Shown: in pieces, positions 17,351-64,000 of the stretch | Numbering within the stretch: position 1 is the first letter of the stretch | How the letters are laid out: the number at the start of each line of letters is the position of its first letter | Virus record (IMG/VR): IMGVR_UViG_3300032315_000486 | Source of the DNA: a virus | Taxonomy: Duplodnaviria; Heunggongvirae; Uroviricota; Caudoviricetes | Reading direction: 5' to 3' (one strand) | DNA: 64,000 nt | Notes under the pieces: generated by a model | Told to the model about the DNA's origin: nothing | The model's input: only the letters and a program-made list of their open reading frames with translations | The model's database searches: none | Made by a program: the position numbers and the translations under genes

Positions 17351-17351
17351 T

Positions 17352-18014: not shown

Positions 18015-18031
18015 TACAACAAGGATTTTAA

Positions 18032-19082: not shown

Positions 19083-19094
19083 AAATAATTCCTT

Positions 19095-19907: not shown

Positions 19908-19944
19908 GCTCTCTTGCTTTAGATGAGCTATTATATATTATAAC

Positions 19945-20021: not shown

Positions 20022-20035
20022 ATAGAAAGCCGACT

Positions 20036-20305: not shown

Positions 20306-20306
20306 A

Positions 20307-20843: not shown

Positions 20844-21486
20844 AACAGTATGGAATAAATCAGATCACAATAGTTGGATGCGAAGCGCACTTATAGATGC
20901 TATGCGCTCTGGAAAACCTCTACCAAGCCGCGATATTGTAGGCTCTCGCTTTAAAGATGGAGACTTTGTACGTCTTAAGAATGGTACTTCTCCTATGAGA
21001 GTGGTTGAGGCTAAAGGCTATGCAATTCGTTGTGAGTATATGTCTAGCGGCAAGCAAATGGCATTTAGAAGCCAAGACGACTTTGTTATATACGAAGCCG
21101 ACACTGCAAAAGAATTAAATGAAATCACAGTAAAAAAGGAAACTGAAATGACTGTTAAACTATATAAAACCGTAGACGGCAATCGTTATGGCGAATACAA
21201 AGCTAACGATGGCGACAAAATCCTCCTGTTGATGCAGGACTCAAATACCTATGAAGCCTTCACCCCAGACGCAATCAAGCGTGTTATGGCTTTCACTTTC
21301 GACGTAATGTTCAATGGCCAAGATAAGGTTTACTCTTATCTAGGTACTGAAGGCGAAGTTGCTGTAGGCGACTTGCTGCTAACTGACGAAATGAGCATCG
21401 CTCGCGTTGTAGCTGTCGGTACCGAAAGCGAAACTGCTACCAAGCGTTTCAAAGGTGTTAAACTAGCCGCTGTGCGTCTAGGCTAA
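20833..21486 (+). CDS. hypothetical protein (217 aa)
   Basis: ORF overlapping upstream stop by 11 nt. Confidence 0.5.
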   Translation: MEPETVWNKSDHNSWMRSALIDAMRSGKPLPSRDIVGSRFKDGDFVRLKNGTSPMRVVEAKGYAIRCEYMSSGKQMAFRSQDDFVIYEADTAKELNEITVKKETEMTVKLYKTVDGNRYGEYKANDGDKILLLMQDSNTYEAFTPDAIKRVMAFTFDVMFNGQDKVYSYLGTEGEVAVGDLLLTDEMSIARVVAVGTESETATKRFKGVKLAAVRLG

Positions 21487-21493
21487 TACCGCT

Positions 21494-21568
21494 GCCCCAG
21501 TAGCTCAGCGACAGAGCAGCGCTTTAGTAAAGCGAAGGTCCGCGGTTTGATCCCGTGCTGGGGCACCA
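21494..21568 (+). tRNA. tRNA-Thr? (anticodon AGT, A34)
   Basis: acceptor gccccag/ctggggc perfect, D gctcagcgacagagc, anticodon stem gcgct/agcga (27:43 mismatch) loop ttagtaa, T-loop tttgatc, CCA. Confidence 0.6.
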
Positions 21569-21574
21569 TATAAC

Positions 21575-21649
21575 GTCTCTATAGCTCAATGGATAGAGCA
21601 CCGCGCTACGAACGCGATGATGTGGGTTCGACTCCTACTAGGGACTCCA
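21575..21649 (+). tRNA. tRNA-Arg (anticodon ACG)
   Basis: acceptor gtctcta/tagggac, D gctcaatggatagagc, anticodon stem ccgcg/cgcga loop ctacgaa, T-arm gtgggttcgactcctac, CCA. Confidence 0.75.
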
Positions 21650-21655
21650 ATATAT

Positions 21656-21731
21656 TCTGACATAGTGTTAGCGGACAGCACGTCTGATTGTGGATCAGAT
21701 AGGAGTGGTTCGAATCCACTTGTCAGGACCA
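21656..21731 (+). tRNA. tRNA-His (anticodon GTG)
   Basis: acceptor tctgaca/tgtcagg, D gtgt-tagcggaca-gcac, anticodon stem tctga/tcaga loop ttgtgga, T-arm agtggttcgaatccact, CCA; no encoded G-1. Confidence 0.7.
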
Positions 21732-38810: not shown

Positions 38811-39437
38811 ATGACTTATGAAGAATACATACTATCTAATGTAATAGATAAAAAAGTAGATAATTATGAGCTTCTGATAGAGGCTATGCTACAAACATCT
38901 GTGGCACCTAGTACTTACCTAGAAAATAAATTAACTAAACAAAAAGTTAGTGTTGGACTCACGAAAATCTTCGGAGAGAAGGCACACAAAGACAAGAATA
39001 CATCTTTTAATTTTTATTTTCTAAAACAGTACAGGGAAGAAATTTTAGGAATAGAAGAAGACACAATAAAGACATGCTCTGCTTGCAACAGAGAGTTACC
39101 AATAACGGAGTTTTACTCTAATGGGTATCAACCTAGTGGTAAGAAAAAGTATAAATCAAAATGCAAAAACTGCCAAATAGTGCAAAACGATTCTAGAAAA
39201 GAAGATATAATATTAAAAGTAGTCGGGTCTTACTCATGTAATATATGTGGGTATAGTAAATGTAAACAGGCTCTAGAGTTTCACCATGTGGACCCGCAGA
39301 TTAAAGAATACAAAATATCTGATCTAAGTACGCATAAAGAAGATATTATAGTACTAGAGTTAGAAAAGTGTATTTTAGTATGTGCCAACTGCCATAGAGA
39401 AATACACTATGGATTGCATCCAGAATATATAATTTAA
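38811..39437 (+). CDS. HNH homing-type endonuclease (very AT-rich, free-standing)
   Basis: CSAC..(n)..CKNC zinc ribbon, then CNICGYSK....EFHHVDPQIK.....LVCANCHREIH (HNH core); ~300-nt ORF-free flanks on both sides. Confidence 0.7.
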   Translation: MTYEEYILSNVIDKKVDNYELLIEAMLQTSVAPSTYLENKLTKQKVSVGLTKIFGEKAHKDKNTSFNFYFLKQYREEILGIEEDTIKTCSACNRELPITEFYSNGYQPSGKKKYKSKCKNCQIVQNDSRKEDIILKVVGSYSCNICGYSKCKQALEFHHVDPQIKEYKISDLSTHKEDIIVLELEKCILVCANCHREIHYGLHPEYII

Positions 39438-39760
39438 GTGCTCCGTTTGTAGCAAGTTGTGAAGATGGAATGGACACGGCTCTCGGATGCCGTTACCTCC
39501 ACCAACCATATTAATTATGGGGGTAAAAGGGATCGACATACGTTGTAGCAATGCGTGAGGAGCCAGTGAGCAAGCGACTGTAACCGCAAGAAAATCAATA
39601 AGTGCAAATGAAAATTCAGCACCTGTTAAATTAGCTCTAGTAGCTTAATTTAAGTGGGTATGGGTTCCACCTAGAAACAGAACGGGCCCACCTTATAAAC
39701 TTATCAGACAAAGTAATATTAATATTGCTTAGATCGGATAGTGTATGCTATATTAAGGAT

Positions 39761-53952: not shown

Positions 53953-53970
53953 TGGGCCCTTTTTTATTTA
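53936..53970. terminator. bidirectional rho-independent terminator
   Basis: aaaaa-gggccc-gtaat-gggccc-ttttttattt between convergent gene sets. Confidence 0.8.
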
Positions 53971-54974
53971 GCTGGTATGAGTATGCGAGAGAACTGTTCA
54001 TAACACGATTTCCATGTCCAACGCGTAGAACTATCATAAGCATCCTGCCTGCTCAGTTTCATTGCTTCAACCACAGCTTCATGTAGATCATCACTTAAGT
54101 ACCCATTAACTCCTTGAGTTAATATGTCTATAGGCCCAGTAACAGGATATGCAGCTACAGGAGTTCCACAAGCCAGCGCCTCAATGTTTACAACTCCAAA
54201 TGTATCAGATCGAGAAGGAAATACGAACACTGATGCTCGTCTATACCAGTCACCAAGCTCGTGCCCTGTTCGCTTTCCAGCAAAAAGAACATCTGGATAC
54301 CGAGCCTTCAAAGCCTCCAGATATGGTCCATCACCTACTAGCACCTTTTGAGTGCCTGGAATGTCAAGACTGCAAAAGTCGTCCAGACCTTTTTCATGGC
54401 TCACACGGCTCACGCACAACACAATCTTAGTAGACCCAGCCTCTCCCGTGTATGGATAGAACGTGGCAGTATCAACTCCGCGTGTCCATGAGTGAACTGG
54501 CTGAGTGAATCCGTGACCGCGCAGCTCTCGAACCATTGATTCAGTTGTGGTTAAAACCGCAGTAGCATCACGATAAGCCCAACGCATCAGCCGCCAACCC
54601 CGCTCAACACTGATCCAAGGCCAACGAGCATTGACAAACTCAGGAAATTTGGTATGGCATGATGCTGAGAACGGGATGCGCAGTCTGCGACAAGTTCTAG
54701 CAAATGCAATTCCAAGTGGGCCTTCTAGAGTTGCAATGTGAATGTGATCCCAGCGTTGACGCTTGAGCAGTCTACGAATGTGCAGAGGATTTGGGATTCC
54801 TACCGTAACCTCAGGATACTGAGGAAGCGAGAACCGGACAGTACAGCGTCCAGGATGATAAACGTGTACCACATCTCCATGGTTTCTAGCTTCACGAACG
54901 AGGTTCGTTAGGGTTGTGACCACTCCATTAGTTTGCGGATGCCAAGCATCAGTTATCAGAAGTATTCGTGCCAT
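53964..54974 (-). CDS. glycosyltransferase family 4 (GT-B fold)
   Basis: MARILLITDAWHPQTNGV N-terminus; EX7E motif region FVFPSRSDTFGVVNIEALACGTPVAAYPV. Confidence 0.7.
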   Translation of the reverse strand: MARILLITDAWHPQTNGVVTTLTNLVREARNHGDVVHVYHPGRCTVRFSLPQYPEVTVGIPNPLHIRRLLKRQRWDHIHIATLEGPLGIAFARTCRRLRIPFSASCHTKFPEFVNARWPWISVERGWRLMRWAYRDATAVLTTTESMVRELRGHGFTQPVHSWTRGVDTATFYPYTGEAGSTKIVLCVSRVSHEKGLDDFCSLDIPGTQKVLVGDGPYLEALKARYPDVLFAGKRTGHELGDWYRRASVFVFPSRSDTFGVVNIEALACGTPVAAYPVTGPIDILTQGVNGYLSDDLHEAVVEAMKLSRQDAYDSSTRWTWKSCYEQFSRILIPAK

Positions 54975-55707
54975 CTAACCTAAACTCTATGATTTCAAAC
55001 CGACCGTCTGAGTGTTCTACAAGGGCAGTTGCGCTTTCAACCCAATCACCGCAATTCATGTATGCAACCCCATCAATCTGCTTGATCACAGCTGTGTGAA
55101 TGTGTCCGCAGATGATCCCGTCATAGCCTTCACGTTTGCAATATGCAGAAACGTGAGTTTCAAAGTGTGTGATGAATGATACAGCTTGTTTTGTAGTCTG
55201 TTTGAGCCAGTTGCTCAAACTCCAGTATTCTAGACCAAACCAACCTCTCACTCGGTTAAATTGAATGTTCGCGACGATGGCCGCGTTGTATGCCACATCA
55301 CCGATGTGCATCAGCCAACGTTTGTCAACCATCAGCGAGTCAAAGAAGTCTCCATGAATCACCAGCAGCCGCTGTCCGCTCACAGAGTGATAGTCACAAC
55401 GATCTACCAGACGGATGTTGCCAACTTCAATGTCGAATTGAGTGAACTTGCGAAACACCTCATCGTGGTTTCCGGTCGTGTATGTGACCTCAGTTCCTCT
55501 TTTCGCTGCGGTAAGGATACGACGTATCACATTCGCATGGCTTTGAGGAAACCACCACCGACGGCTAAGTTGCCAGCCGTCGACAATGTCTCCAACCAGA
55601 AACAGTCGATCGCATGTGTGCTGCTTTAGAAACGCACACAGCGCGTCTGCTTGACAACCGCGAGCTCCTAGGTGAATGTCCGATATGAAAATGCTGGTGT
55701 AATGCAT
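54949..55707 (-). CDS. LpxH-like calcineurin-type metallophosphoesterase
   Basis: FISDIHLG, LVGDIVDGW, TGNHDE; overall layout as UDP-2,3-diacylglucosamine hydrolase family. Confidence 0.65.
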   Translation of the reverse strand: MHYTSIFISDIHLGARGCQADALCAFLKQHTCDRLFLVGDIVDGWQLSRRWWFPQSHANVIRRILTAAKRGTEVTYTTGNHDEVFRKFTQFDIEVGNIRLVDRCDYHSVSGQRLLVIHGDFFDSLMVDKRWLMHIGDVAYNAAIVANIQFNRVRGWFGLEYWSLSNWLKQTTKQAVSFITHFETHVSAYCKREGYDGIICGHIHTAVIKQIDGVAYMNCGDWVESATALVEHSDGRFEIIEFRLDGTNTSDN

Positions 55708-56749: not shown

Positions 56750-56769
56750 TCGATTTTCTCCTTTGATTT

Positions 56770-56798
56770 AGAATACCACGGTCACCAGCTGAGGTCAA
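56770..56798 (-). promoter_or_regulatory. sigma70-like promoter of minus operon (TTGACC-N17-TATTCT)
   Basis: reverse complement of ggtcaa(56793-98)/agaata(56770-75). Confidence 0.5.
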
Positions 56799-56820
56799 GC
56801 ATAATCGTCTAAAAAGTGCA

Positions 56821-56833
56821 GCAACGGAGTTGC
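56821..56833. promoter_or_regulatory. operator-like palindrome GCAAC-gga-GTTGC (site O1)
   Basis: just upstream of the -35 of the minus-operon promoter; same family as O2-O5. Confidence 0.4.
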
Positions 56834-57247
56834 GCTGGGGGCAGGGCATTAAAGAATATTTTTAAAATGGTCGTCAACCATTGTTTTTGACAACTTTGCT
56901 ACTAGACTTTTTATTCATTTAGGTGTACGATTGAGAGGTAGACAAAAGAGCAGGGAGAACGAGATAGGCAATGGAATTGCCGTGCGTACTAAGATCACGC
57001 AGTGAAACGGCGGGGCCAGCAGCAGGCTACGAGCGTTAGCGAGCGCTGCTGACAGCATCACGAAGTGAATTAGTGGTGATCGAAGCGGATATTTGAGTCG
57101 TACTTACGTTTAAATCACTGTGTTAGATTGTTTAAACGTATTTTAACCTGTTTACGTCGTATTCTAGTTTATAGTATTATTATTCAGGCACATTCAGGCC
57201 TGCCAAGAATTGGCACAGGCGGCAAGTGATACTATCCCAGCCTGCGT

Positions 57248-57262
57248 TGCAACGTAGTTGCA
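57248..57262. promoter_or_regulatory. operator-like palindrome TGCAAC-gta-GTTGCA (O2)
   Basis: perfect 6-bp inverted repeat. Confidence 0.45.
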
Positions 57263-57306
57263 TTGGGTTGTACTGGCCTGCCATGAAATGGCTCGGGGTT
57301 GATTCC

Positions 57307-57332
57307 GTTGCATTGGTTGCAACGAAGTTGCA
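57307..57332. promoter_or_regulatory. overlapping palindromes CGTTGCA-ttggt-TGCAACG and TGCAAC-gaa-GTTGCA (O3)
   Basis: two dyads sharing the TGCAAC arm. Confidence 0.45.
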
Positions 57333-57368
57333 CTGGTGGTCCATGAAATGGCTCGGGGCCCTTACATC

Positions 57369-57385
57369 GTGCAAAGTATTTGCAC
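57369..57385. promoter_or_regulatory. operator-like palindrome GTGCAAA-gta-TTTGCAC (O4)
   Basis: perfect 7-bp inverted repeat. Confidence 0.45.
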
Positions 57386-57694
57386 TGGTGGGCCATGAAA
57401 TGGCTCGGGGTTTTTAGGTTTTCCTACTAGGATTCCGTCTATTTTTTAGACTCTCTTCGGATCCAGGACTCTGTCTAGTGATTATTTTTCAAATAAGAGA
57501 GATTTTAGTCTAGTAACGTATACTATCGGTAGCCGACCGCGCCAGAAATTCATAAAAACAGGTTGGTACCAGTGGTCTTGCCAAATAATCATTTAAAAAG
57601 TAGGATTCCTCAAAAATATTTCAAAAAACAACCGTTAATTGCTTGACCCCTGCCCGTCAGACCCGTGAAACTACGTTTCATACCGAATATGGCG

Positions 57695-57709
57695 TTGCAC
57701 GAAGTGCAA
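57695..57709. promoter_or_regulatory. operator-like palindrome TTGCAC-gaa-GTGCAA (O5)
   Basis: perfect 6-bp inverted repeat adjacent to terminator. Confidence 0.45.
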
Positions 57710-57745
57710 AAGGCCCCTAGGAGTGATCCTAGGGGCCTTTTTAGT
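57707..57745. terminator. bidirectional rho-independent terminator
   Basis: aaaa-ggcccctagga-gtga-tcctaggggcc-ttttt, 11-bp perfect stem. Confidence 0.75.
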
Positions 57746-57826
57746 ATGATTCGGTAGCCTGTGGCGTACCCAGGACCTTGTTTCAATCATTCACTAGTCA
57801 AAATCCTACCACACGCATCAAAATTC

Positions 57827-58158
57827 TACTTGCCGTTTGCCTACTGGTGCTTCGCACCCACCCACATCACGAAGTGATGCACCGTTGCAGGACTTTGAAA
57901 CGTAGTTTCGAATCGCACGAACCCCGCCACGCGCTTTGATTTTGTACTTGCCATTTGCCTACTGGTGCACGCACACACTTGCAATTAAACAGCAGCTGGA
58001 CCGAATCCCGCGTTTAAAATTTACTTTGTACTTGCCAAATGCCTACTGGCGCAGGGCCGCGCACACAGACTGACCGTCAACACGGACCTAATCGAAATTG
58101 CACTCGACGGCCGCATGGTCGAAAGTCTACTTTCTACTTGGCGCAAGCTGCGCTTGCC
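57827..58158 (+). repeat. iteron-like direct repeats TACTTGCCnTTTGCCTACTGGyGC (3 good copies + 1 degenerate)
   Basis: copies at 57827-57850, 57945-57968, 58029-58052, degenerate 58134-58158; spacing 118/84/105 bp. Confidence 0.55.
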
Positions 58159-58212
58159 AGCTATGCCTGCGGTTGCGGCGAAATCGCGTGGTGGTTGTGG
58201 TGGAAAAGATGA

Positions 58213-58270
58213 ATGAAATCAATTGCTTGGGAGGCCGGGCGCCCCGACTGTTAACCTGTTGAAATCCAAT
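58213..58270. repeat. cassette-boundary dyad element R1 (degenerate)
   Basis: aatcaattgcttgg...ggccgggcgccccg...ctgttaacctgttgaaatcc. Confidence 0.4.
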
Positions 58271-58509
58271 GGTTATTTTTCATTTGCATCAGTGCTGAGA
58301 ATCATGTATAACGTATGAGTAGGCAGTAAAGAGAAGCCTAGCCGATGCCGCGATAGACTGCACCGCTTACACTGTTCATGACAGGCGGCTTGCACGGATG
58401 ATACGGGTTGGTCAGATGAAGCGGGGTAGAGATGCGCATCCCCTGCCAATCGAATAGGCTTCTCCTTAGTGCCTACCAATAAACTCTTTGATTTCAGTAA
58501 CTTGGAATC

Positions 58510-58555
58510 AGAGGCGCCCCGCCCTGTATGTCCTTGAACATACAGGGTTTTTTAG
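58510..58555 (+). terminator. rho-independent terminator oriented for plus-strand transcription (R0)
   Basis: ggcgccccg then ccctgtatgt-ccttga-acatacaggg hairpin + tttttt. Confidence 0.7.
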
Positions 58556-58773
58556 TGCGCCTCGAATTGTGGGACTAAAGCCCATTCAACATTAGACAGC
58601 TCAGTCAACTCGCCATCTTCAATGCCGAGCATTTTCCAATTGCTGTAAGCGTCCCAGTCCTTTTTATCAATGGCCCCGCCTTCCCAGAGTTTACGGAATT
58701 CAGCATTGATTTGCGGAAGTGTGCCTTGTATAAAACAAGGCACTTCATCCTCCGTATAGATCAGCACATACAT
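58552..58773 (-). CDS. hypothetical acidic protein (73 aa)
   Basis: last gene of a tricistronic minus unit. Confidence 0.45.
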   Translation of the reverse strand: MYVLIYTEDEVPCFIQGTLPQINAEFRKLWEGGAIDKKDWDAYSNWKMLGIEDGELTELSNVEWALVPQFEAH

Positions 58774-58784
58774 TTTATTTCCTT

Positions 58785-59015
58785 TCAGAAAACAGATTGA
58801 GGATGGCCGAACAACACAACCAGAAGGTCATAGCCGTCGAGCAGATCAGCCAGAGCGGCAACGCGGTCAACCTCGTCCCATTCAGCGTATTCGACTTCGC
58901 CAGCGAGTGACACCCAAGCGGCACTGGTCATGAGATTGGGATCAACATCGGTTTCAACTTCGGTGAGCATATAATGGTCACCGCCATCACGCCAGACTAC
59001 AGTGTAGTTTTTCAT
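58785..59015 (-). CDS. hypothetical acidic protein (76 aa)
   Basis: ORF. Confidence 0.45.
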   Translation of the reverse strand: MKNYTVVWRDGGDHYMLTEVETDVDPNLMTSAAWVSLAGEVEYAEWDEVDRVAALADLLDGYDLLVVLFGHPQSVF

Positions 59016-59026
59016 GTCTTTTCCTT

Positions 59027-59149
59027 TCAGAGGATTGTGAGTGATTCGACAGTGGATTCATCTTCTGCCAAATGGTAACCAAAGTCAAGCAGAATTTGCA
59101 TAGTCAAATGATTCAGGTAGTCGATGTATTCTTCGTAGGTCAGGTCCAT
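59027..59149 (-). CDS. hypothetical small protein (40 aa)
   Basis: ATG 8 nt after ggaaaaacaaa RBS-like and correctly spaced from promoter Pm1. Confidence 0.3.
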   Translation of the reverse strand: MDLTYEEYIDYLNHLTMQILLDFGYHLAEDESTVESLTIL

Positions 59150-59172
59150 TTTGTTTTTCCTTTCGATGATTA

Positions 59173-59201
59173 TGTATAGGCTGATTCGTTACGCGTTGCA
59201 A
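59173..59201 (-). promoter_or_regulatory. cassette promoter Pm1 (TTGCAA-N17-TATACA, CGAATC in spacer)
   Basis: minus strand ttgcaacgcgtaacgaatcagcctataca. Confidence 0.55.
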
Positions 59202-59221
59202 GCCCTAAATTACTGCGTAAT

Positions 59222-59270
59222 ATCAATGAGTTACGACCCGGGGCGCCGGGGTGGTTAACCCCTTGTTATT
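59222..59270. repeat. cassette-boundary dyad element R2
   Basis: caatgagttacgacccggggcgccggggtggttaaccccttgttatt. Confidence 0.6.
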
Positions 59271-59466
59271 ATTCAGTTTCTTCCTCTGGGATGTCTTCAA
59301 CCTCGATTAGTTTCGCATCTAAATTATGCGAATCAAAGGTTTGCTCTTCCGAATCTTCCCAATCACCATTGCGGACCATAGCCCTAGCCTCTTCTTCTGA
59401 TTCGGCTTCAAGCCAGACTGTTTGCCGCCCGCTGAACGGCATTGAAAAGGTGTAAAGTTTGCTCAT
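59269..59466 (-). CDS. hypothetical acidic protein (65 aa)
   Basis: start MSKLYTF after gggagatcaaagc RBS; track ORF opens at 59505. Confidence 0.45.
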   Translation of the reverse strand: MSKLYTFSMPFSGRQTVWLEAESEEEARAMVRNGDWEDSEEQTFDSHNLDAKLIEVEDIPEEETE

Positions 59467-59546
59467 GCTTTGATCTCCCTGATCAGTTGTTTCAGGCGCG
59501 CCCAACGGCTACGCTTGGGCTTGCTCAGTCGAACTTTAATCCTCAT
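59463..59546 (-). CDS. 27-aa basic peptide (MRIKVRLSKPKRSRWARLKQLIREIKA), translationally coupled on both sides
   Basis: TAAAATG overlap with upstream stop and ATGA overlap with downstream start. Confidence 0.25.
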   Translation of the reverse strand: MRIKVRLSKPKRSRWARLKQLIREIKA

Positions 59547-59547
59547 T

Positions 59548-59775
59548 TTAGCAGCTCCCGATTTCAAGAATGTCAGAGTTAAATTGCGGTTGCAGAGTAT
59601 TTACCACATCTTCCCAAGTGGTAAATGATCCTCCAGCAGGATCACCATCACACCAAACACTATCATCAGATTCATCATCGCAGACAACGCTGAAATTAGA
59701 ATCCTCTTCCAAAGTGCCATAGCACTCCACGTCCCGACCTTGGTAGTGGACGATGTATACATGATTTGCTTCCAT
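59548..59775 (-). CDS. hypothetical Cys/Asp-rich protein (75 aa)
   Basis: aaaaggagaaacaaagATG RBS. Confidence 0.5.
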   Translation of the reverse strand: MEANHVYIVHYQGRDVECYGTLEEDSNFSVVCDDESDDSVWCDGDPAGGSFTTWEDVVNTLQPQFNSDILEIGSC

Positions 59776-59799
59776 CTTTGTTTCTCCTTTTGATGATTA

Positions 59800-59829
59800 A
59801 CTATAGCCCGAATCATGAGGACAGTGCAA
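59800..59829 (-). promoter_or_regulatory. cassette promoter Pm2 (TTGCAC-N18-TATAGT, GATTCG in spacer)
   Basis: minus strand ttgcactgtcctcatgattcgggctatagt. Confidence 0.5.
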
Positions 59830-59848
59830 GCACAAAGTTTCTGTGTGT

Positions 59849-59900
59849 TCTCAACGGGTTATGCTGCGGGGCGCCGGGGTGGTTAACCCCTTGTTATTAT
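59849..59900. repeat. cassette-boundary dyad element R3
   Basis: caacgggttatgctgcggggcgccggggtggttaaccccttgttatt. Confidence 0.55.
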
Positions 59901-60319
59901 AATTCTTCAACAGGTAGATATTCCCATTTAAAAGACCTAGAACCAGAAATTTCTAGCAGAGGAGATTCTGTCTTTTTATTGTATTTCAGAAAAGACTTGA
60001 CCTCCTTGAGCACGTGTTTGGCTTGTAGGAAAGTAATTGCAAAAACCTCAGTTTGCCCGCTATTCATTTTAAACCCTTGGCCGGTCTTAGGGTCTTGAAA
60101 GTTACCTGATACAACCACCTCGTATGCTTTGCCGCCTTTCTTTTCTGCAAGCATATGTGCAAGCACTTCAGCATCGGAATCTTCAATCTCAATGCTAGCC
60201 ATGCGAATGCGATCAGACTTTAGAAACCCGATTTGTTTTGCTCGGGACGTAACACTTCCGCGAGTTACACCGATTTTGGTAATTCCAAAACCTTCGTAAG
60301 TGACAGCATAGAGTTTCAT
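59897..60319 (-). CDS. GIY-YIG/T5orf172-like domain protein candidate (140 aa)
   Basis: start MKLYAVTYEGFGITKIGVT (..LY....G..KIGvT); promoter-consistent ATG at 60319 rather than 60373. Confidence 0.4.
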   Translation of the reverse strand: MKLYAVTYEGFGITKIGVTRGSVTSRAKQIGFLKSDRIRMASIEIEDSDAEVLAHMLAEKKGGKAYEVVVSGNFQDPKTGQGFKMNSGQTEVFAITFLQAKHVLKEVKSFLKYNKKTESPLLEISGSRSFKWEYLPVEEL

Positions 60320-60344
60320 GGTTGCTTCCTTTTCTGTTACCTTG

Positions 60345-60373
60345 TTTATAGCTGCTAAACTATAAGTCGTCAA
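60345..60373 (-). promoter_or_regulatory. cassette promoter Pm3 (TTGACG-N17-TATAAA)
   Basis: minus strand ttgacgacttatagtttagcagctataaa. Confidence 0.5.
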
Positions 60374-60393
60374 TATCGTTTAAAGACGATAGA

Positions 60394-60446
60394 AATCAAT
60401 GAGTTAGCTGCCCGGCCGCCCCACCCGCTAACCTGTTGAAATCATT
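60394..60446. repeat. cassette-boundary dyad element R4
   Basis: aatcaatgagttagctgcccggccgccccacccgctaacctgttgaaatcatt. Confidence 0.6.
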
Positions 60447-60471
60447 ACACATTTTCCGTGTCTTTCGTGCA

Positions 60472-60504
60472 ACAAAAAAGCCCCCGCATTGCTGCGAGGG
60501 CTTT
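60472..60504 (-). terminator. rho-independent terminator (minus orientation)
   Basis: minus strand gccctcgcagcaatgcgggggc + ttttttgtt. Confidence 0.55.
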
Positions 60505-60646
60505 AAGCGTGCATACTGTCTAGCACGATCAACCGGCGGGTGACGCAACCGACACGGATTTGTTTTGACCATTTAACGTCGGGTCTGGAGTCTTATCTGA
60601 ACCGAGACGATAGTTGGGTGTGACATTTCTGCCACACCCGTTAGGC

Positions 60647-60973
60647 TCAGGCGGCTTTCACCGCCTGCGCCAGAGCGATCACAGAGGCGATTGCCTCTTT
60701 AGTCGCACCCAGCAAACCGTCAACGGGAAAATCGACCAGCGACTCCAGTTCGTTGAGCAGTTCCTTTTTGGTCGGGCCTTCGACCTTGGCAGCCTTCGGA
60801 GCCTTCGGCTCGGCCACATAGGCACCCTCGCGGACCAGCTTGGACCGGACGGACCGGACAGGCTTGCCCAAGGTTTCGGCAATCTTTTCGATGCCGTCAT
60901 TGCCCAACTCGGCATACATCTGCAACATTTGCTCGACCATCGACTCGGTGTAGTTCACTTTTGCTTCAGCCAT
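60647..60973 (-). CDS. small conserved protein, paralog family A (GC-rich copy 1)
   Basis: MAEAKVNYTESMVEQMLQMYAELGNDGIEKIAETLGKPVRSVRSKLVREGAYV...KKELLNELESLVDF; start chosen from ggagaaaatcATG. Confidence 0.55.
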   Translation of the reverse strand: MAEAKVNYTESMVEQMLQMYAELGNDGIEKIAETLGKPVRSVRSKLVREGAYVAEPKAPKAAKVEGPTKKELLNELESLVDFPVDGLLGATKEAIASVIALAQAVKAA

Positions 60974-61004
60974 GATTTTCTCCTCAGATGGGCTGTTTCG
61001 CTTT

Positions 61005-61033
61005 CCGTTCAATATATATAGACGATTCGCGGG
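61005..61033 (-). promoter_or_regulatory. cassette promoter Pm4 (TTGCTG-N17-TATATA, CGAATC in spacer)
   Basis: minus strand ttgctgcctgcccgcgaatcgtctatata. Confidence 0.5.
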
Positions 61034-61103
61034 CAGGCAGCAAGAGTAATTTTTCGCTTGACACGCACAAAATGGGGTCTTGAAGTGACTAAATTATGCA
61101 ATG

Positions 61104-61162
61104 AAATCAATGGGTTAGCCGCCGGGGCGCCGCCCCAGCTATCTCATTGAAATAGCTGGGTT
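61104..61162. repeat. cassette-boundary dyad element R5
   Basis: aatcaatgggttagccgccggggcgccgccccagctatctcattgaaatagctgggtttttt. Confidence 0.6.
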
Positions 61163-61167
61163 TTTTG

Positions 61168-61371
61168 TTACAGTTCGTCAACGAGAGTTTCGTCGTCACC
61201 CTCCCAAGCGGCGTTCATCAGACACGAGTCTGCGCCTTCTTCTGGAGTCATGCCGCACTCATAGGAGTCACGGCTAAGCCAGTCGGGCAGCATCATACTG
61301 TCAAGCCCGCCAGTCCGCTTGACGAGAATGCGATCAACCTGCGTCATCCATTCTTCATAGGTTATAGTCAT
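61168..61371 (-). CDS. hypothetical acidic protein (67 aa)
   Basis: ggagg RBS; ATGA overlap with upstream gene. Confidence 0.45.
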   Translation of the reverse strand: MTITYEEWMTQVDRILVKRTGGLDSMMLPDWLSRDSYECGMTPEEGADSCLMNAAWEGDDETLVDEL

Positions 61372-61559
61372 TCAAAGTGTCCTCCAAATCGAGTGTGGCC
61401 GATAGCTACAGGAATTTCGTGCGTGGGATATCCATCAGCTTTGAGTTGTGAAGCCAGGGTTTCATCAGAACGAGTCAAGCCTTTCGGCCATGTTTTGGGA
61501 AATCCATACCGCCAGCCGCTTGGCGGGTCATACCAGTCAGGGACGAAAACTTTAGTCAT
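61368..61559 (-). CDS. hypothetical protein (63 aa)
   Basis: start MTKVFVPDWYD after caggaggttgct RBS; track ORF opens at 61634. Confidence 0.45.
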   Translation of the reverse strand: MTKVFVPDWYDPPSGWRYGFPKTWPKGLTRSDETLASQLKADGYPTHEIPVAIGHTRFGGHFE

Positions 61560-61580
61560 AGCAACCTCCTGTGATGATCG

Positions 61581-61609
61581 TATATAACGTGATTCGTTAG
61601 TGCGGACAA
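61581..61609 (-). promoter_or_regulatory. cassette promoter Pm5 (TTGTCC-N17-TATATA, CGAATC in spacer)
   Basis: minus strand ttgtccgcactaacgaatcacgttatata. Confidence 0.5.
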
Positions 61610-61628
61610 TAGGCAAATTTGTGTGCGT

Positions 61629-61680
61629 TATCAATGAGTTAGAATCGGCAGCGCCCCGCCCGCTAAGTGCTTGATTTAGT
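61629..61680. repeat. cassette-boundary dyad element R6
   Basis: atcaatgagttagaatcggcagcgccccgcccgctaagtgcttgatttag. Confidence 0.55.
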
Positions 61681-61710
61681 TGAGAAAAATGAGGGGCCGA
61701 AGCCCCTCAC

Positions 61711-62433
61711 TTAGGCGTTGACAACCTGCGGCAACTGTGCCTTGCCGTCGATGCCGAGTCGGGTGTTGATTTTCTTCCACACCGCGCCAGCCAGTTCGGC
61801 AGGGGACTTGACAACAGGCATTCGTTTCTTGCGCGACAGCGTCCGCACCAGCAAATCCGATTCGATTTCCACGTCGGACCAAGCGATATGCCGCTCTACA
61901 AATTCCGCTTGACAAAATTCGTATTTGTAAGCGGACTCGGCAGAGGTCGAAACGAATCGGCCAGACGCGCTGGCAGCGGCGACCGTGCCATAATGACGCG
62001 GCACCGATTCGCCCCAGAAATCCCAAATGTCCATCAGTTCCACGCGCTTGTCAAGCCACCGCGTAACCGTGCCGCCCGTCAAGACAGAGACGGTTTCAGG
62101 CAAGTATTTGAAATCAAAGGCAGAATTGTAGGCCGCGCAGATCACTCGATGGCCTGCCACCTGAAATTCGCCAATTTGGCGGTTATACTCCGCGCGAACG
62201 TCCAGCACATCCGCAGGCTGAATCAGCTTGCCATATGCGTCGTCAAAGTAGTGGCCCAGCTTTTCAGCGAAGAAAGGCACATCATGGCGGAACGCCTCGC
62301 GAATCACATACGACCCGCGACCATATTCGCGGCCACGCTTGTCAATGGTTTTCCATGCCACATCAAACGCGATGCGTTTTTTCATGGTGGTTTCAATGTC
62401 AGTCACGACGAACAGGGTGGGCTTATGGGTCAT
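61711..62433 (-). CDS. DEDDh 3'-5' exonuclease (DnaQ-like fold)
   Basis: Exo I LFVVTDIETT (D.E), Exo II ICAAYNSAFDFKYL, Exo III HIAWSDVEIESDL (H....D); start at 62433 consistent with promoter/RBS. Confidence 0.6.
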   Translation of the reverse strand: MTHKPTLFVVTDIETTMKKRIAFDVAWKTIDKRGREYGRGSYVIREAFRHDVPFFAEKLGHYFDDAYGKLIQPADVLDVRAEYNRQIGEFQVAGHRVICAAYNSAFDFKYLPETVSVLTGGTVTRWLDKRVELMDIWDFWGESVPRHYGTVAAASASGRFVSTSAESAYKYEFCQAEFVERHIAWSDVEIESDLLVRTLSRKKRMPVVKSPAELAGAVWKKINTRLGIDGKAQLPQVVNA

Positions 62434-62470
62434 GGCAGGTTTCCTTCGTTGTCTGCGCTTCCTTATGATC

Positions 62471-62499
62471 TTTATACGGTGATTCGCAGGGGGATGCAA
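62471..62499 (-). promoter_or_regulatory. cassette promoter Pm6 (TTGCAT-N17-TATAAA, CGAATC in spacer)
   Basis: minus strand ttgcatccccctgcgaatcaccgtataaa. Confidence 0.5.
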
Positions 62500-62517
62500 C
62501 AACTAAAAAACGCAGCA

Positions 62518-62580
62518 AAATCAAGGGGTTAGCGGCGGGGGCGCCGGGGTGGTTAACCCCTTGTTATTCAATGATTTCTG
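62518..62580. repeat. cassette-boundary dyad element R7
   Basis: aatcaaggggttagcggcgggggcgccggggtggttaaccccttgttattcaatgatttc. Confidence 0.6.
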
Positions 62581-62749
62581 TCCACACCGAAATCTTCTGG
62601 CAAGCCTCATCATATAAGCTATTGTTCACGCCTTCGATATAGAGGTCGATAGCACCCGCCCCTTGGGCAATTACTTCCTCAGGAATTTCCTCGATCCATT
62701 CTGTATCAGTTCCGGCATATCCCATGCTATAACCCATTTTAATCTTCAT
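62564..62749 (-). CDS. hypothetical acidic protein (61 aa)
   Basis: last gene of tricistronic unit. Confidence 0.4.
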   Translation of the reverse strand: MKIKMGYSMGYAGTDTEWIEEIPEEVIAQGAGAIDLYIEGVNNSLYDEACQKISVWTEIIE

Positions 62750-63039
62750 TAGTATTCTCCACTCGGCAAGATGTTTTGATATACAGGACCATTTTCCGCG
62801 ATTTTAATATCCTCATACGGGCCGACGATAACGCGGTTCAGTTCCATTTTAGCGCATTCCAGAGCGCCAACCATTTCATTGACCACGGCGTATTTCAGCC
62901 CTTTAGTGCGGATATAATTGGCGATGAATGTGGAAACCACGAAGTTCAATTCACCCGCATTTTCAGGAATCCAATCAATTCCAACATCTTGCATATCAAG
63001 ATGAATATCTTCGCGCTGTTGTTCGGGGATATACGGCAT
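62749..63039 (-). CDS. hypothetical protein (96 aa)
   Basis: ORF coupled to upstream NDT-like gene. Confidence 0.45.
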   Translation of the reverse strand: MPYIPEQQREDIHLDMQDVGIDWIPENAGELNFVVSTFIANYIRTKGLKYAVVNEMVGALECAKMELNRVIVGPYEDIKIAENGPVYQNILPSGEY

Positions 63040-63040
63040 T

Positions 63041-63487
63041 TTAAGCGACCTTTCTCAGGGTTTCAACATTGCGACCACGGCGGCCAATTTCGGAGGCAAT
63101 GGCGTGATACGCGCCTTTCACCAGATTGTCAGTATCAAGCCAAGTCCAGAGGTGGTGATGCGTAAATGCCACATCCGAAATTGCATTCGGCTTGATAGAG
63201 CGGCAGCTACCGACAGCATACACCGGCTTGCCCATACCGTAGGCCATACCGATTTCAACCAGAGCGCCGCGCTGTTCTTCCGATTGATCCTCAGAGTAGA
63301 GCAGCACGAAGTCCGAGTCGCGCACATCTTCGTAGCACATTTGCCACAGTTGGTCTTTGTGATTGGTGACAATCGGATCATTCTGGTTCAAGTCGATCCA
63401 GCGAGCCTGAACAGGCAGACCCAGCGTGTCACGCAACATTTTGAATTTGTCAGCGTGCCAGATTTTGCCAGCGGTGTAGAATTTCAT
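63041..63487 (-). CDS. nucleoside 2-deoxyribosyltransferase-like (NDT/Rcl fold) protein, GC-rich copy
   Basis: MKFYTAGKIW....SDFVLLYSEDQSEEQRGALVEIGMAYGMGKPVYAV matches NDT-like pattern; aaaaggaacctgccATG RBS. Confidence 0.5.
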   Translation of the reverse strand: MKFYTAGKIWHADKFKMLRDTLGLPVQARWIDLNQNDPIVTNHKDQLWQMCYEDVRDSDFVLLYSEDQSEEQRGALVEIGMAYGMGKPVYAVGSCRSIKPNAISDVAFTHHHLWTWLDTDNLVKGAYHAIASEIGRRGRNVETLRKVA

Positions 63488-63519
63488 GGCAGGTTCCTTT
63501 TCTCTCTTGCCGATGATTA

Positions 63520-63548
63520 TGTATAGGCCGATTCGTTGGGCATTACAA
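63520..63548 (-). promoter_or_regulatory. cassette promoter Pm7 (TTGTAA-N17-TATACA, CGAATC in spacer)
   Basis: minus strand ttgtaatgcccaacgaatcggcctataca. Confidence 0.55.
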
Positions 63549-63565
63549 CAGAAAAGAATCGTTGT

Positions 63566-63620
63566 GAATCAATGGGTTAGCCGCGGGGGCGCCCCGCCCC
63601 GTAAGTTGTTGAAATCATTC
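63566..63620. repeat. cassette-boundary dyad element R8
   Basis: aatcaatgggttagccgcgggggcgccccgccccgtaagttgttgaaatcattc. Confidence 0.6.
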
Positions 63621-63660
63621 AGAAAAATGTGGGGGAACCTGTGCGGTTCCCCCTTGACGG

Positions 63661-64000
63661 TCAGGCCGATTCGGTTTCATCCTCATCGGCGGGCGCTTCG
63701 TCCTGCGACTCAGCCAGCGCGATAACGTGCGCGATGGCTTCCTTCGTGGCACCCATCAGTCCCGACACGTCGAAGCCAACCAGCGACTCGAGCTGATTCA
63801 GAAGTTCCTTCTTCGTCGGACCTTCTTCCTTCTTCGCCTTGGGCTTTTCAGCCGCGGCGACGTAAACGCCTTCGCGCACCAGCTTCGAGCGGACCGAACG
63901 GACGGGCTTGCCGAGAGTCTCAGCAATCGTATCCAGACCTTCGTTGCCGAGGTCCGCATACATTTGGAGCATGGTTTCCACCATAGCTTCCGTGTAGTTC
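63661..64000 (-). CDS. small conserved protein, paralog family A (GC-rich copy 2), 5' end beyond window
   Basis: ...NYTEAMVETMLQMYADLGNEGLDTIAETLGKPVRSVRSKLVREGVYV...KKELLNQLESLVGFD; alignment with 60647 copy shows N-terminus continues past 64000. Confidence 0.5.
   Translation of the reverse strand, partial: NYTEAMVETMLQMYADLGNEGLDTIAETLGKPVRSVRSKLVREGVYVAAAEKPKAKKEEGPTKKELLNQLESLVGFDVSGLMGATKEAIAHVIALAESQDEAPADEDETESA

Follow-up and report, generated by a model that had tools for sequence, protein, structure and literature searches.

A gap of 1.8 kb in the 64,000-nt stretch of viral DNA analysed here (the window) is a conserved, composite non-coding control region and not one single binding site. 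It sits among the early genes of a large uncultured phage, next to small unknown genes, a glycosyltransferase and a phosphoesterase. Its modules lie in one order: divergent sigma-70-like promoters are followed by a hairpin-rich tract, which combines an AT-rich core with tandem hairpin units in numbers that differ among relatives, then by a near-invariant block with a terminator, by direct repeats and by a cassette unit. Two rightward (+) units are delimited by host-type promoter and terminator signals, one leading from P(+)1 (56903–56931) to terminator T2 (57708–57746) and the other from a promoter at 58284–58312 through a 165-nt leader to terminator T3. The reading preferred here, on sequence grounds and with a probability of roughly 45%, is that non-coding transcripts would be made rightwards from the region early in infection and would bind a factor through their hairpin arrays.

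The gap was predicted to be ORF-free, and this was borne out by an ORF scan, in which no ORF of 56750–58551 exceeded 68 aa, and by six-frame tblastn against nine relatives, in which no frame of the gap showed protein-like conservation. In fact, all frames were alike, with amino-acid identities of 45–75% that did not exceed nucleotide identity, and most contained stops. A 134-aa ORF over the repeats, called in two relatives, was rejected as not gene-like, being Arg-rich and of low complexity, with 56–61% amino-acid identity where the DNA is ~80% identical. The gap and its module order are shared by at least 15 related metagenomic phage contigs and persist where the adjacent 80-aa protein is only 62–90% identical among relatives. 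The region is internal in a 165-kb contig (~35 kb from an end) and in a 72-kb contig, the contig ends of relatives are scattered, and no nucleotide similarity to any isolate phage was found. Against Rfam 15, the best match of the region had E = 0.25, with every match far under the gathering score, and a search of five relatives returned nothing at E <= 1. All features listed in the original prediction were found where it had placed them, far above chance; its label of control region stands in that promoter-like and terminator-like signals are conserved on both strands, but the multi-operator reading that it favoured is not supported. The features are as follows.

56758–56798, minus strand: promoter-like P(-), -35 TTGACC (56798–56793), 17-nt spacer, -10 TATTCT (56775–56770), from a consensus scan
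56763–56758, minus strand: ribosome-binding site AAGGAG of the P(-) operon
56821–56833, plus strand: hairpin GCAAC-GGA-GTTGC between the divergent promoters
56903–56938, plus strand: promoter-like P(+)1, -35 TAGACT (56903–56908), 17-nt spacer, -10 TACGAT (56926–56931)
56940–57095, plus strand: GC-rich structured tract, short variant
56967–56981, plus strand: hairpin GGCAAT-GGA-ATTGCC
57017–57051, plus strand: big-loop hairpin CAGCAGC...GCTGCTG, loop motif AGCGnnAGCGA
57056–57068, plus strand: partial hairpin CATCAC-GAA-GTGA
57095–57195, no strand assigned: AT-rich tract with conserved TATA(C/G)T box, 27.5% G+C at 57100–57179
57201–57416, plus strand: hairpin array, three tandem units 60 and 52 nt apart
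57201–57215, plus strand: TGCCAA-GAA-TTGGCA
57248–57262, plus strand: TGCAAC-GTA-GTTGCA
57280–57292, plus strand: GCCAT-GAA-ATGGC
57318–57332, plus strand: TGCAAC-GAA-GTTGCA
57341–57351, plus strand: CCAT-GAA-ATGG
57369–57385, plus strand: GTGCAAA-GTA-TTTGCAC
57392–57404, plus strand: GCCAT-GAA-ATGGC
57420–57660, plus strand: most conserved block, from alignments of 10–14 relatives
57429–57442 and 57465–57478, plus strand: two AGGAYTCYRTCTAK boxes
57437–57451, plus strand: hairpin GTCTA-N5-TAGAC
57520–57538, plus strand: invariant 19-mer TAGCCGACCGCGCCAGAAA
57666–57680, minus strand: hairpin TGAAAC-TAC-GTTTCA, with its G-N-A loop on the minus strand
57695–57709, plus strand: hairpin TTGCAC-GAA-GTGCAA abutting T2
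57708–57746, plus strand: intrinsic terminator T2, 15-bp stem (57708–57741) then T-run
57750–58230, plus strand: direct-repeat block of ~100-nt units (57802–57850, 57920–57968, 58004–58052; degenerate unit 58118–58146)
57846–57858, plus strand: GGTGC-TTC-GCACC
57865–57879, plus strand: CATCAC-GAA-GTGATG
57897–57909, plus strand: GAAAC-GTA-GTTTC
58143–58157, plus strand: GCAAGC-TGC-GCTTGC
58238–58262, plus strand: cassette-boundary motif GGCGCCCCG-N5-TAACYCRTTGA, the sole plus-strand copy with <=1 mismatch
58284–58312, plus strand: promoter-like TTGCAT-17-TATAAC, predicted start near 58317
58317–58481, plus strand: structured ~165-nt leader, closing stem 58319–58340 with 58460–58481
58513–58555, plus strand: degenerate cassette motif and intrinsic terminator T3, stem 58521–58548 then TTTTTT

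At the left end, a minus-strand promoter with an upstream GCAAC-gga-GTTGC dyad had been described, and these correspond to TTGACC-17-TATTCT (56798–56770) and the hairpin at 56821–56833. Both hexamers of P(-) are kept in 12 relatives around a variable spacer, and the place of the hairpin is taken in relatives by GCAAC-GCA-GTTGC, GGCAAC-GGA-GTTGCC or CACAC-GGA-GTGTG. The predicted start of P(+)1 lies near 56938 and is followed by the near-invariant initial sequence TTGAGAGGTAGACAAAAG. At least 15 relatives keep the P(+)1 boxes (-10 TACGAT, TACAAT or TACTAT) and the initial ~20 transcribed nt, though not the spacer, and the -10/start region is identical in five further contigs. The GC-rich tract (the second block) is ~150 nt longer in most relatives than in the window, and its big-loop hairpin combines one loop motif with four different stems in relatives, among them GAGCGC/GCGCTC, GGTCTCAC/GTGAGACC and GGTGTCGC/GCGACACC. 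The AT-rich tract is kept in position in all relatives, but not in sequence.

The conserved property of the palindromes is pairing, not sequence, and their loops are strand-specific. The region holds 16 perfect hairpins (stem >=5, loop 3), against 1.9 +/- 1.4 expected from 1000 dinucleotide shuffles of the region, and 11 of the 16 have a G-N-A loop on the + strand, against 0.115 expected (largest shuffle value 3), an excess of ~100-fold over chance. Five palindromes of one TTGCA type had been proposed; about 12 G-N-A hairpins were counted instead, with at least nine different stems in the window (GCAAC, GGCAAT, TGCCAA, TGCAAC, GCCAT, GTGCAAA, TTGCAC, CATCAC, GAAAC) and 39 distinct perfect G-N-A hairpins across relatives. 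The proposed consensus TTGCAmNNNkTGCAA showed no enrichment across the window (20 matches with <=2 mismatches, 13.2 +/- 3.8 expected). The loops in the region are GAA, GTA and GGA, with GCA in a partial hairpin, and the closing pair is C-G in 6/11 of the G-N-A hairpins and T-A in several. G-N-A and T-N-C loops stand at 11:4 in the region and 57:23 in relatives. Elsewhere in the window, where the same hairpin type is found inside genes, G-N-A hairpins number 24 against 4.7 expected (~5-fold over), and beyond the region they follow the gene sense strand, at 26:5 in the window and 32:16 in the flanks of relatives. GC skew is positive over 56780–57460, the sign being that of the sense strand of phage genes.

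Among orthologous hairpins, stem sequences are altered by compensatory double substitutions and the G-N-A loop is kept. G-T pairs make up 6/253 in the G-N-A hairpins, all at outer ends, so that the cores are exclusively Watson-Crick. G-U intermediates in the predicted helices of the most conserved block (block 3) and of the leader lie on the + strand; in the most conserved stretches, the relatives differ too little from one another to yield more than a limited covariation signal. No 5' motif is common to the flanks of the 11 hairpins, and all that these flanks have in common is a G-rich 3' tail. Since the stems covary, the G-N-A loop is strand-specific and the consensus is not enriched, the palindromes behave as single-strand hairpins and not as duplex operators; palindrome density by itself is no guide to operator density.

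In the array, each hairpin carries the G-rich 3' tail (YNGGKG), with a T-run after the last. The three tandem ~60-bp units of a palindrome plus CCATgaaATGG, noticed before, are confirmed at 57246–57412 with a spacing of 60 and 52 nt; copy number and period vary, with four 45-nt units in L005, 31-nt units in L015 and one to three units in other relatives. At the hairpin 57666–57680, three pairs show double-sided changes, in 6, 2 and 6 of 14 relatives respectively, giving stems TTGGAC, CACAC, TTTGAC and AAAAC without loss of the closing C-G pair or the loop type. A fifth palindrome beside an 11-bp bidirectional terminator had been reported next: the palindrome abuts T2 on the + strand, and the stem of T2 is 15 bp. 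This stem shows compensatory changes, with a + strand T-run in 14/14 relatives and a minus-side T-run that is weak in some. Furthermore, the + strand RNA of 56936–57748 folds better than 20/20 shuffles (z = -3.2).

The direct-repeat block is built on the 24-mer TACTTGCCnTTTGCCTACTGGyGC, found at 57827, 57945 and 58029 (0 expected in shuffles, absent elsewhere in the window). With a degenerate fourth copy at 58132, this matches the three or four copies first predicted, and the spacing is 118, 84 and 106 bp. Each unit consists of the 24-mer, with two CTACTKG sub-repeats, and flanking hairpins; unit positions are kept among relatives, which have 3–5 units. Two hairpins of this block (block 4) show both-side changes in 4/3/2 and 2/2/5 of 10 sequences. 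The + strand is C-rich here, with a GC skew of -0.2 to -0.44, opposite to the hairpin tract.

The segment 58238–58555 is an inverted copy of the promoter-leader-terminator unit of the neighbouring cassette array. Eight minus-strand copies of its boundary motif lie between small genes at 59.2–63.6 kb (0 expected by chance), and each of the nine good copies in all is followed by TTGCAn-17-TATAnn. The cassette promoter reads TTGCAT/TTGCAC-17-TATAAA/TATATA in relatives. Inside the closing stem of the leader lie a conserved core (GATGCCGCGAYAGACTGCACCGC ... GGCGGCYTGCACGGATGATAC) and a hairpin that varies; three sequence variants adopt one fold, with G-U pairs on the + strand. Immediately 3' of the leader, relatives have AGGAG and then the ATG of a 122-aa ORF (MPKYEV...), and T3 is kept 3' of this ORF, which is lost in the window only. 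T3 itself, at 58521–58555, is the plus-strand terminator predicted at 58510–58555. In L013 the cassette promoter stands directly before the homologous ORF without a leader, and the leader precedes another gene there; the cassette module is inverted in L005, and a ~100-nt insertion flanked by a duplicated boundary motif is found in L019, L018 and L005. The right-hand 330 bp is a gene cassette minus its ORF and no part of an origin or partition site. With its fully conserved core and its place before two unrelated genes in relatives, the 165-nt leader (58317–58481) is a candidate for a new cis-regulatory RNA.

According to the preferred reading of early non-coding transcripts, host RNA polymerase would transcribe 56.94–57.75 kb rightwards early in infection, yielding a structured non-coding RNA some 800 nt long. 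The repeated units of hairpin and G-rich tail in this RNA would form a multivalent platform or decoy for a phage- or host-encoded hairpin-binding factor, and the same factor would also meet the G-N-A hairpins over-represented on the sense strand of phage genes. P(-) would drive the operon of the 80-aa, 267-aa, phosphoesterase and glycosyltransferase genes, and the direct-repeat block, which separates T2 from the cassette promoter, would be either regulatory DNA or part of a read-through transcript. The gap and module order shared with relatives, the conserved promoter boxes and T2, the covarying hairpins, the strand bias with the positive GC skew, the cassette nature of 58238–58555, the + strand folding and the non-coding frames all argue for the RNA. 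Typical RNA helices, however, tolerate more G-U than the exclusively Watson-Crick cores of the G-N-A hairpins, C-GNA-G marks DNA mini-hairpins of extraordinary stability, and the direct-repeat block lies 3' of a strong terminator, no promoter of its own being found; there is also no Rfam match, and no candidate hairpin-binding protein was identified. A broader proposal is made more tentatively, namely that one short hairpin type (5–7 perfect pairs, G-N-A cap) is a genome-wide signal and the region its concentrated form, as a new multivalent non-coding RNA or as DNA mini-hairpins used en masse as initiation signals.

The main rival to the RNA reading, although an unlikely one, is that the hairpins act in DNA as an initiation zone, i.e. 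a transcription-activated replication origin. The hairpins would be extruded from supercoiled DNA, or formed on the displaced non-template strand during P(+)1 transcription, and serve as entry or priming signals for primase, helicase or polymerase, while the AT-rich tract would unwind and the 24-mer repeats would bind the initiator. C-GNA-G on a stem of 5–7 bp matches the DNA mini-hairpin motif exactly (PMC13037366; for the loop geometry of the N4 promoter, PMC4496689), and such hairpins are documented to function on single-stranded DNA in priming and in starting transcription (PMC13037366, PMC4496689). Like the N4 promoters, the G4 complementary-strand origin and RSF1010 ssiA, the region hairpins have a 5–7-bp stem, a 3-nt G-N-A loop, matching the purine-centred loop with a sheared G:A pair of N4, and mostly C-G closing; stem identity is free provided that pairing holds, as reported for non-conserved stem positions of N4 (PMC4496689, PMC13037366). 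The stems are perfectly Watson-Crick, essentially without G-T, and lie on the strand that P(+)1 transcription would displace; the AT-rich tract is fixed in position rather than sequence, and the direct repeats sit at conserved positions. However, the hairpins share neither a flanking motif like the N4 promoter consensus nor a conserved -17 to +1 sequence, they number a dozen within 1.1 kb, when the entire N4 genome has three promoters, and, unlike the N4, G4 and RSF1010 mini-hairpins, several close with T-A and others lie within genes, on the sense strand. Neither a giant virion RNA polymerase of N4 type nor a primase is found in the 64-kb window, the genome being at least 165 kb. Iteron origins (lambda ori, plasmid oriV) are resembled in the ~24-bp direct repeats, the AT-rich tract and the promoter reading in, but the repeats are 84–118 bp apart and ~600–650 bp from the AT-rich tract, unlike contiguous iterons, and no initiator gene is adjacent. 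Hairpin strand bias follows gene orientation and does not flip around the locus as a bidirectional origin predicts, and the GC skew turns at ~54 kb, the site of the gene-orientation switch. Since no DnaA box (TTWTNCACA or TGATCCACA) occurs in the region, the repeats are not close iterons and no replication or partition gene is nearby, the origin and partition sites offered as alternatives in the original prediction lack their defining features.

It is improbable that the region is mostly debris of cassette shuffling, in which remnants of promoters, terminators and lost genes lie together without collective function. The right-hand 330 bp is demonstrably an ORF-less cassette, relatives differ by insertions, by an inversion (L005) and by variable adjacent gene content, and the second block is ~150 nt shorter in the window. 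Nevertheless, stretches of 19–38 nt are invariant, module order is kept where the flanking protein is down to 62% identity, compensatory substitutions point to purifying selection on structure, and the hairpin excess is 100-fold over chance.

Very improbable, too, is a counterpart of the untranslated repeat regions in the T5 terminal repeat (the injection-stop-signal region), DNA that contains the pre-early promoters and acts in cis to pause or organise the entry of the genome (bioRxiv 10.1101/866236). Repeat Region 3 of T5 is a 1.2-kb ORF-free stretch containing palindromes and nested direct repeats, with variable small genes beside it; its architecture is better conserved than the adjacent small ORFs, and its conserved feature is eight paired DnaA boxes in inverted repeats (Davison, bioRxiv 10.1101/866236). 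Direct repeat C of T5 (AY587007) holds tandem AAATGA-GAA-TCATTT hairpins with GGTGC-GGA-GCACC nearby, the NAD-dependent ligase of the window is closest to T5-like phages (32% identity), and the context of tRNA, HNH and dUTPase resembles the T5 early region. The consensus DnaA box is absent, however, against eight in T5; homologues of A1, A2 and dmp are absent from the window and the loci of six relatives, and a tblastn search of the window and these six loci with 17 T5 terminal-repeat proteins gave nothing below E = 0.1. The internal position of the region and the scattered contig ends of relatives give no sign of a terminal-repeat location, and the dissimilarity to isolate phages noted above counts against this reading as well.

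Least probable are the duplex operators for one dimeric regulator that the original prediction favoured, or a centromere-like array for a partition protein: many dyads do share outer TGC...GCA bases and cluster around promoters, two paralogous small DNA-binding proteins (phrog_1725) are encoded nearby and plasmid F sopC has a similar layout of tandem 45–60-bp units each holding a palindrome, but stems differ in the window and its relatives (GCCAT, CATCAC, GAAAC, TCCGC, GTCAC and others) and covary so that complementarity is maintained, the central G-N-A triplet is strand-asymmetric, the consensus is not enriched, the same hairpin type lies inside genes across the window, and genes like those of ParA or ParB were not seen.

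In lytic phages, large conserved untranslated regions are, to our knowledge, rare and poorly understood, and that of T5 has been debated for decades. The present region is a second, independent case with a far cleaner signal, namely one hairpin type, strong covariation, strand specificity and natural variation in copy number. If the hairpins act in RNA, it would be a new early phage non-coding RNA, probably with a new RNA-protein interaction that also touches phage mRNAs. Should they instead work as DNA, the range of stable mini-hairpin signalling would widen from small replicons and N4 to include a phage of 165 kb or more, as the first mass use outside N4, G4 and RSF1010, in a large double-stranded DNA phage.

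CsrB/RsmZ-type RNAs and ToxI or phage pseudo-ToxI are non-coding, with repeated short units in variable copy number, whose valency sets protein titration. The proposed transcript would be alike in its repeated short units of varying copy number, but its loops are G-N-A, mostly GAA or GUA, whereas CsrA prefers A(N)GGA loops, and no toxin gene is adjacent. The closest look-alikes are the T5 untranslated repeat regions and the T4-type PeSL cassettes. Like T5 Repeat Regions 1–3, the region is a 1.2–1.9-kb ORF-free stretch among small variable early genes, with promoters of divergent operons, terminators, nested direct repeats and palindromes, and with an architecture that outlasts neighbouring ORFs; the tandem direct repeats of T5 each hold a G-A-A-looped palindrome as well, but the C-GNA-G hairpins here are far denser and covary, and there is no sequence similarity. 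As in PeSL cassettes (PMC2839356, PMC4122927), a GC-rich motif and an early-type promoter are repeated between small ORFs of a variable region, and copies of the cassette motif mark the end points of insertion, deletion and inversion among relatives. The sequence is unrelated, the phage is not T4-like and a 165-nt structured leader is added, so that the likeness to PeSL is one in kind and limited to 58238–58555, the right-hand fifth of the region.

The stretch between the GT4 operon and the array of small-gene cassettes was found to contain every feature placed there by the original prediction. It has no coding potential, the longest ORF in 56750-58551 reaching at most 68 aa. Perfect hairpins with stems of 5 bp or more and 3-nt loops number 16 in the region, against 1.9 ± 1.4 expected from 1000 dinucleotide-preserving shuffles, and 11 of the 16 carry a G-N-A loop on the plus strand, against 0.115 expected and a shuffle maximum of 3. 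The 24-mer repeat is present in three copies in the region, nowhere else in the window and in none of the shuffles. Dyads are indeed present, at about twelve rather than the five predicted, and they do not form a single family, since their stems read GCAAC, GGCAAT, TGCCAA, TGCAAC, GCCAT, GTGCAAA, TTGCAC, CATCAC and GAAAC. Outside the region (1-56749 and 58552-64000), G-N-A triloop hairpins are in about 5-fold excess (24 against 4.7 ± 2.1 expected); most of these lie within genes, and many have the core nnnAT-GAA-ATnnn.

Comparison of the region with 50,697 phage records at the nucleotide level, in near and distant modes, gave no matches, and the adjacent 267-aa protein had no match in the same records. 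Relatives were collected by three routes: a single viral contig with the 24-mer, the contigs of 14 homologues (62-90% identity) of the 80-aa protein encoded next to the region, and a search of metagenomes for an invariant 19-mer, in which 27 matches yielded 11 true relatives. The other 16 were chance matches, approximately the number expected at that pattern length; the other viral-contig match to the 24-mer (L003), which sits inside a gene, was also due to chance. The related metagenomic contigs reach 165 and 171 kb, the relatives in this size range being JACCDQ011957528.1 and JACCDP010620575.1. Upstream of the 80-aa gene, every relative contig extending far enough has a gap of 1-1.9 kb, with blocks in the same order as in the window and 66-84% nucleotide identity, and both the region and its modular structure are conserved, as follows:

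56750-56940, both strands: module 1, two divergent sigma-70-like promoters
within module 1, minus strand: promoter P(-), TTGACC-17-TATTCT, with AAGGAG and the start codon (ATG) of the 80-aa gene after it
within module 1, plus strand: promoter P(+)1, TAGACT-17-TACGAT
56940-57420: module 2, a GC-rich structured tract, then an AT-rich tract, then a hairpin-unit array
57420-57746: module 3, the best-conserved block of the region
57750-58230: module 4, units of about 100 nt at conserved positions
58238-58555, plus strand: module 5, comprising motif, promoter, leader and terminator T3
58238, plus strand: cassette motif GGCGCCCCG-N5-TAACYCRTTGA, at the start of module 5
between cassette motif and leader, plus strand: module 5 promoter, TTGCAT-17-TATAAC
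from the predicted transcription start, plus strand: structured leader of about 165 nt, with T3 after it

The hexamers of P(-) and P(+)1 are conserved in 12-17 relatives while their spacers vary; the -10 element of P(+)1 reads TACGAT, TACAAT or TACTAT in relatives, and the 20 or so nucleotides after it are nearly invariant. Module 2 is about 150 nt shorter in the window and in relatives L011 and L015 than in the others. Its GC-rich tract forms a hairpin with the loop motif AGCGnnAGCGA, which relatives retain on four different stems, and its AT-rich tract (27.5% G+C at 57100-57179) keeps its position across relatives while its sequence varies. The array of "hairpin plus G-rich tail" units consists of three tandem units of 60 and 52 nt in the window, four of 45 nt in L005 and 31-nt units in L015, with one to three in the rest. 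Module 3 holds two AGGAYTCYRTCTAK boxes, an invariant TAGCCGACCGCGCCAGAAA and, at 57666-80, a strongly covarying hairpin; the block is closed by the terminator T2, whose plus-strand T-run is present in 14 of 14 aligned sequences. A sigma-70-type search revealed no convincing or conserved promoter for the conserved block at 57420-57660.

Each module 4 unit contains the 24-mer, itself composed of two CTACTKG sub-repeats; relatives have three to five such units, with C-rich spacers and covarying hairpins between them. The 134/135-aa ORF called over these direct repeats in public gene calls (L019 4625-5029 and L021 2116-2523, both minus strand) is Arg-rich and of low complexity, its translation is conserved less than its DNA, and it was probably called as a gene in error. 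At 58195-58250 (plus strand) lies a short, conserved reading frame, GGTGGA-N4-ATGAATGAAATCAATTGCTTGG..., which spans 13-20 codons in relatives and overlaps the start of the cassette motif; it may be a micro-ORF or conserved non-coding sequence.

The hairpins covary. Orthologous stems differ in sequence among relatives while their complementarity stays perfect. Pairs of hairpin 57668-80 are altered on both sides in 6/14, 2/14 and 6/14 sequences; both-side changes occur in the two G-N-A hairpins of module 4 (4, 3 and 2 of 10, and 2, 2 and 5 of 10) and in hairpin 58141-57 (3/10 and 3/10), and two positions are changed in the T2 stem. Across relatives 39 distinct perfect G-N-A hairpins were found, and among 102 triloop hairpins in eight non-redundant sequences, 57 are G-N-A on the window's plus strand and 23 are T-N-C, the same loop type read on the opposite strand.

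The region is also asymmetric between its strands, with G-N-A loops favouring the plus strand by 11 to 4; outside it, G-N-A hairpins lie on the sense strand of genes at 26:5 in the window and 32:16 in the relatives' flanks. Plus-strand transcription of 56.94-57.75 kb and 58.32-58.56 kb is independently indicated by conserved promoter and terminator signals. Furthermore, G-U intermediates of the module 3 and leader helices are on the plus strand, the sign of the GC skew at 56780-57460 is the one typical of this phage's sense strands, and the fold of the plus-strand RNA of 56936-57748 is better than that of every shuffle (z = -3.2). The most economical reading, given a probability of about 45%, is that the hairpins would be RNA stem-loops in rightward non-coding transcripts; we infer the transcripts, the presumed action at the RNA level and any putative binding partner of the hairpins.

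An action of the hairpins at the DNA level, in initiation, appears unlikely, and several observations speak for it. The hairpin cores are purely Watson-Crick, with G-T accounting for 6 pairs among 253, each at an outer end, and C-GNA-G on a stem of 5-7 bp is characteristic of DNA mini-hairpins of extraordinary stability. The biological roles known for these are at RSF1010 ssiA, the complementary-strand origin of G4 and the virion-polymerase promoters of N4 (PMC13037366, PMC4496689). The strand that P(+)1 transcription would displace is exactly the hairpin-bearing strand. Module 4 is located behind a strong terminator, its GC skew is opposite in sign, and the sigma-70-type search gave no convincing or conserved promoter for its direct repeats on either strand. 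Counts of G-T against A-C mismatches in G-N-A hairpins draw on too few imperfect hairpins for a strand call. RNA stem-loops are preferred because loop polarity, promoters and terminators, the strand of the G-U intermediates, GC skew and folding agree.

The multi-operator site for a dimeric regulator, favoured from the sequence at first, is rejected because both arms change together and the central triplet has fixed polarity, on stems free in sequence; a reader of duplex half-sites would keep the sequence conserved, and neither paired arm changes nor a strand-polar triplet would be expected. Its consensus TTGCAmNNNkTGCAA is not enriched window-wide, with 20 matches at up to two mismatches against 13.2 ± 3.8 expected. 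The observation itself is thus confirmed and extended, and the interpretation stands as a control region but not as an operator array. The relatives' contig ends give no sign of a physical genome end at the region: they are scattered over 56.98-58.4 kb with no pile-up at one point, and probably mark places where assembly broke off in repeat-rich, variable sequence.

The right end of the region originates from a cassette. The motif GGCGCCCCG-N5-TAACYCRTTGA recurs in eight copies on the minus strand between the small genes (59223-63593; none expected by chance), every array copy being followed by a TTGCAn-17-TATAnn promoter-like site, and it serves as a repeated regulatory cassette boundary. In all relatives covering module 5, the leader passes directly into the AGGAG-ATG of a conserved 122-aa ORF (MPKYEV...), with T3 after the ORF. 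Because the motif is shared with the array and the ORF is missing in the window alone, module 5 is an inverted member of the cassette array that lost its gene. L005 carries the entire module in inverted orientation. In L013 the module's promoter stands directly before the ORF homologue, with no leader between, and the leader is found on the opposite strand ahead of another gene, which encodes a 97-aa membrane protein. A search of 185,579 bacterial and archaeal genomes for the leader core pattern gave no match, and among viral contigs the pattern occurs only in the one known relative. An insertion of about 100 nt in L019 (about 4450-4560), L018 and L005, at the place between window positions 58262 and 58263, is flanked by a duplicated cassette motif and holds two ATGCAAG-N8-CTTGCAT palindromes, which resemble genuine duplex operators more closely than anything found in the window's region does. 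Two paralogous small proteins (60647-61012 and 63661-63984, both minus strand) match the phrog_1725 "DNA binding protein" family (E = 8e-7) and are candidates for binding the region's repeats.

The source is a large uncultured tailed phage, for which no close isolate was found. Its genes are on the plus strand up to 53952 and on the minus strand from 53964 to the window end. A 17-kb tract at 4316-21731 (plus strand) carries 27 tRNA genes with small ORFs between, and also encodes:

8635-9171: HNH endonuclease
16536-17135: PP-loop ATPase
20250-20843: RNA-repair-type HAD domain protein

A tRNA-like gene called by ARAGORN at 14583-14658 has an abnormal 2-nt "anticodon". The permuted tmRNA gene at 39440-39648 (plus strand; Rfam tmRNA_permuted, 81.7 bits; alpha_tmRNA also matches, at 39404-39692) suggests that the host may be alphaproteobacterial or similar. 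NAD-dependent ligase, NAD-salvage enzymes, dUTPase and an endolysin-like protein are also encoded, as is a 473-aa protein with DUF2828 and DUF7788 domains (22357-23778, plus strand). The phosphoribosyltransferase is about 57% identical to that of roseophages of about 148 kb, and the ligase about 32% identical to that of T5-like phages. The genes for a GT4 glycosyltransferase and an LpxH-like metallophosphoesterase (53964-55707, minus strand), downstream of the 267-aa gene, are found only in the window, L013, L017 and one other relative; they are taken as an accessory insertion because L005, L010, L018 and L019 run the 267/269-aa gene straight into a convergent dNMP-kinase block.

Among known systems, a Rfam search for the region with the window and five relatives gave no match, and resemblances to sigma-54, Cas12a-repeat and CsrA sites were dropped after sequence inspection. 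By our comparison the closest look-alike is the untranslated repeat regions of the T5 terminal repeat. These ORF-free stretches of up to 1.2 kb carry pre-early promoters together with nested repeats and palindromes, and their layout is conserved better than the ORFs next to them (bioRxiv 10.1101/866236). Direct repeat C of T5 likewise has tandem hairpins, AAATGA-GAA-TCATTT. However, the DnaA boxes that define the T5 regions are absent, a scan of the region finding none, and no homologues of T5 pre-early proteins (A1, A2 and dmp among them) were found. A terminal-repeat location of the window's region would be hypothetical. Iteron origins differ in repeat spacing, AT-rich tract adjacency and gene context. 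N4-type promoters have the same hairpin geometry, whereas the region's hairpins have no common flanking motif; no N4-type polymerase was found within the 64-kb window. PeSL promoter/stem-loop cassettes mark sites of modular shuffling in T4-type phages (PMC2839356, PMC4122927), and module 5 with the shared array motif behaves alike.
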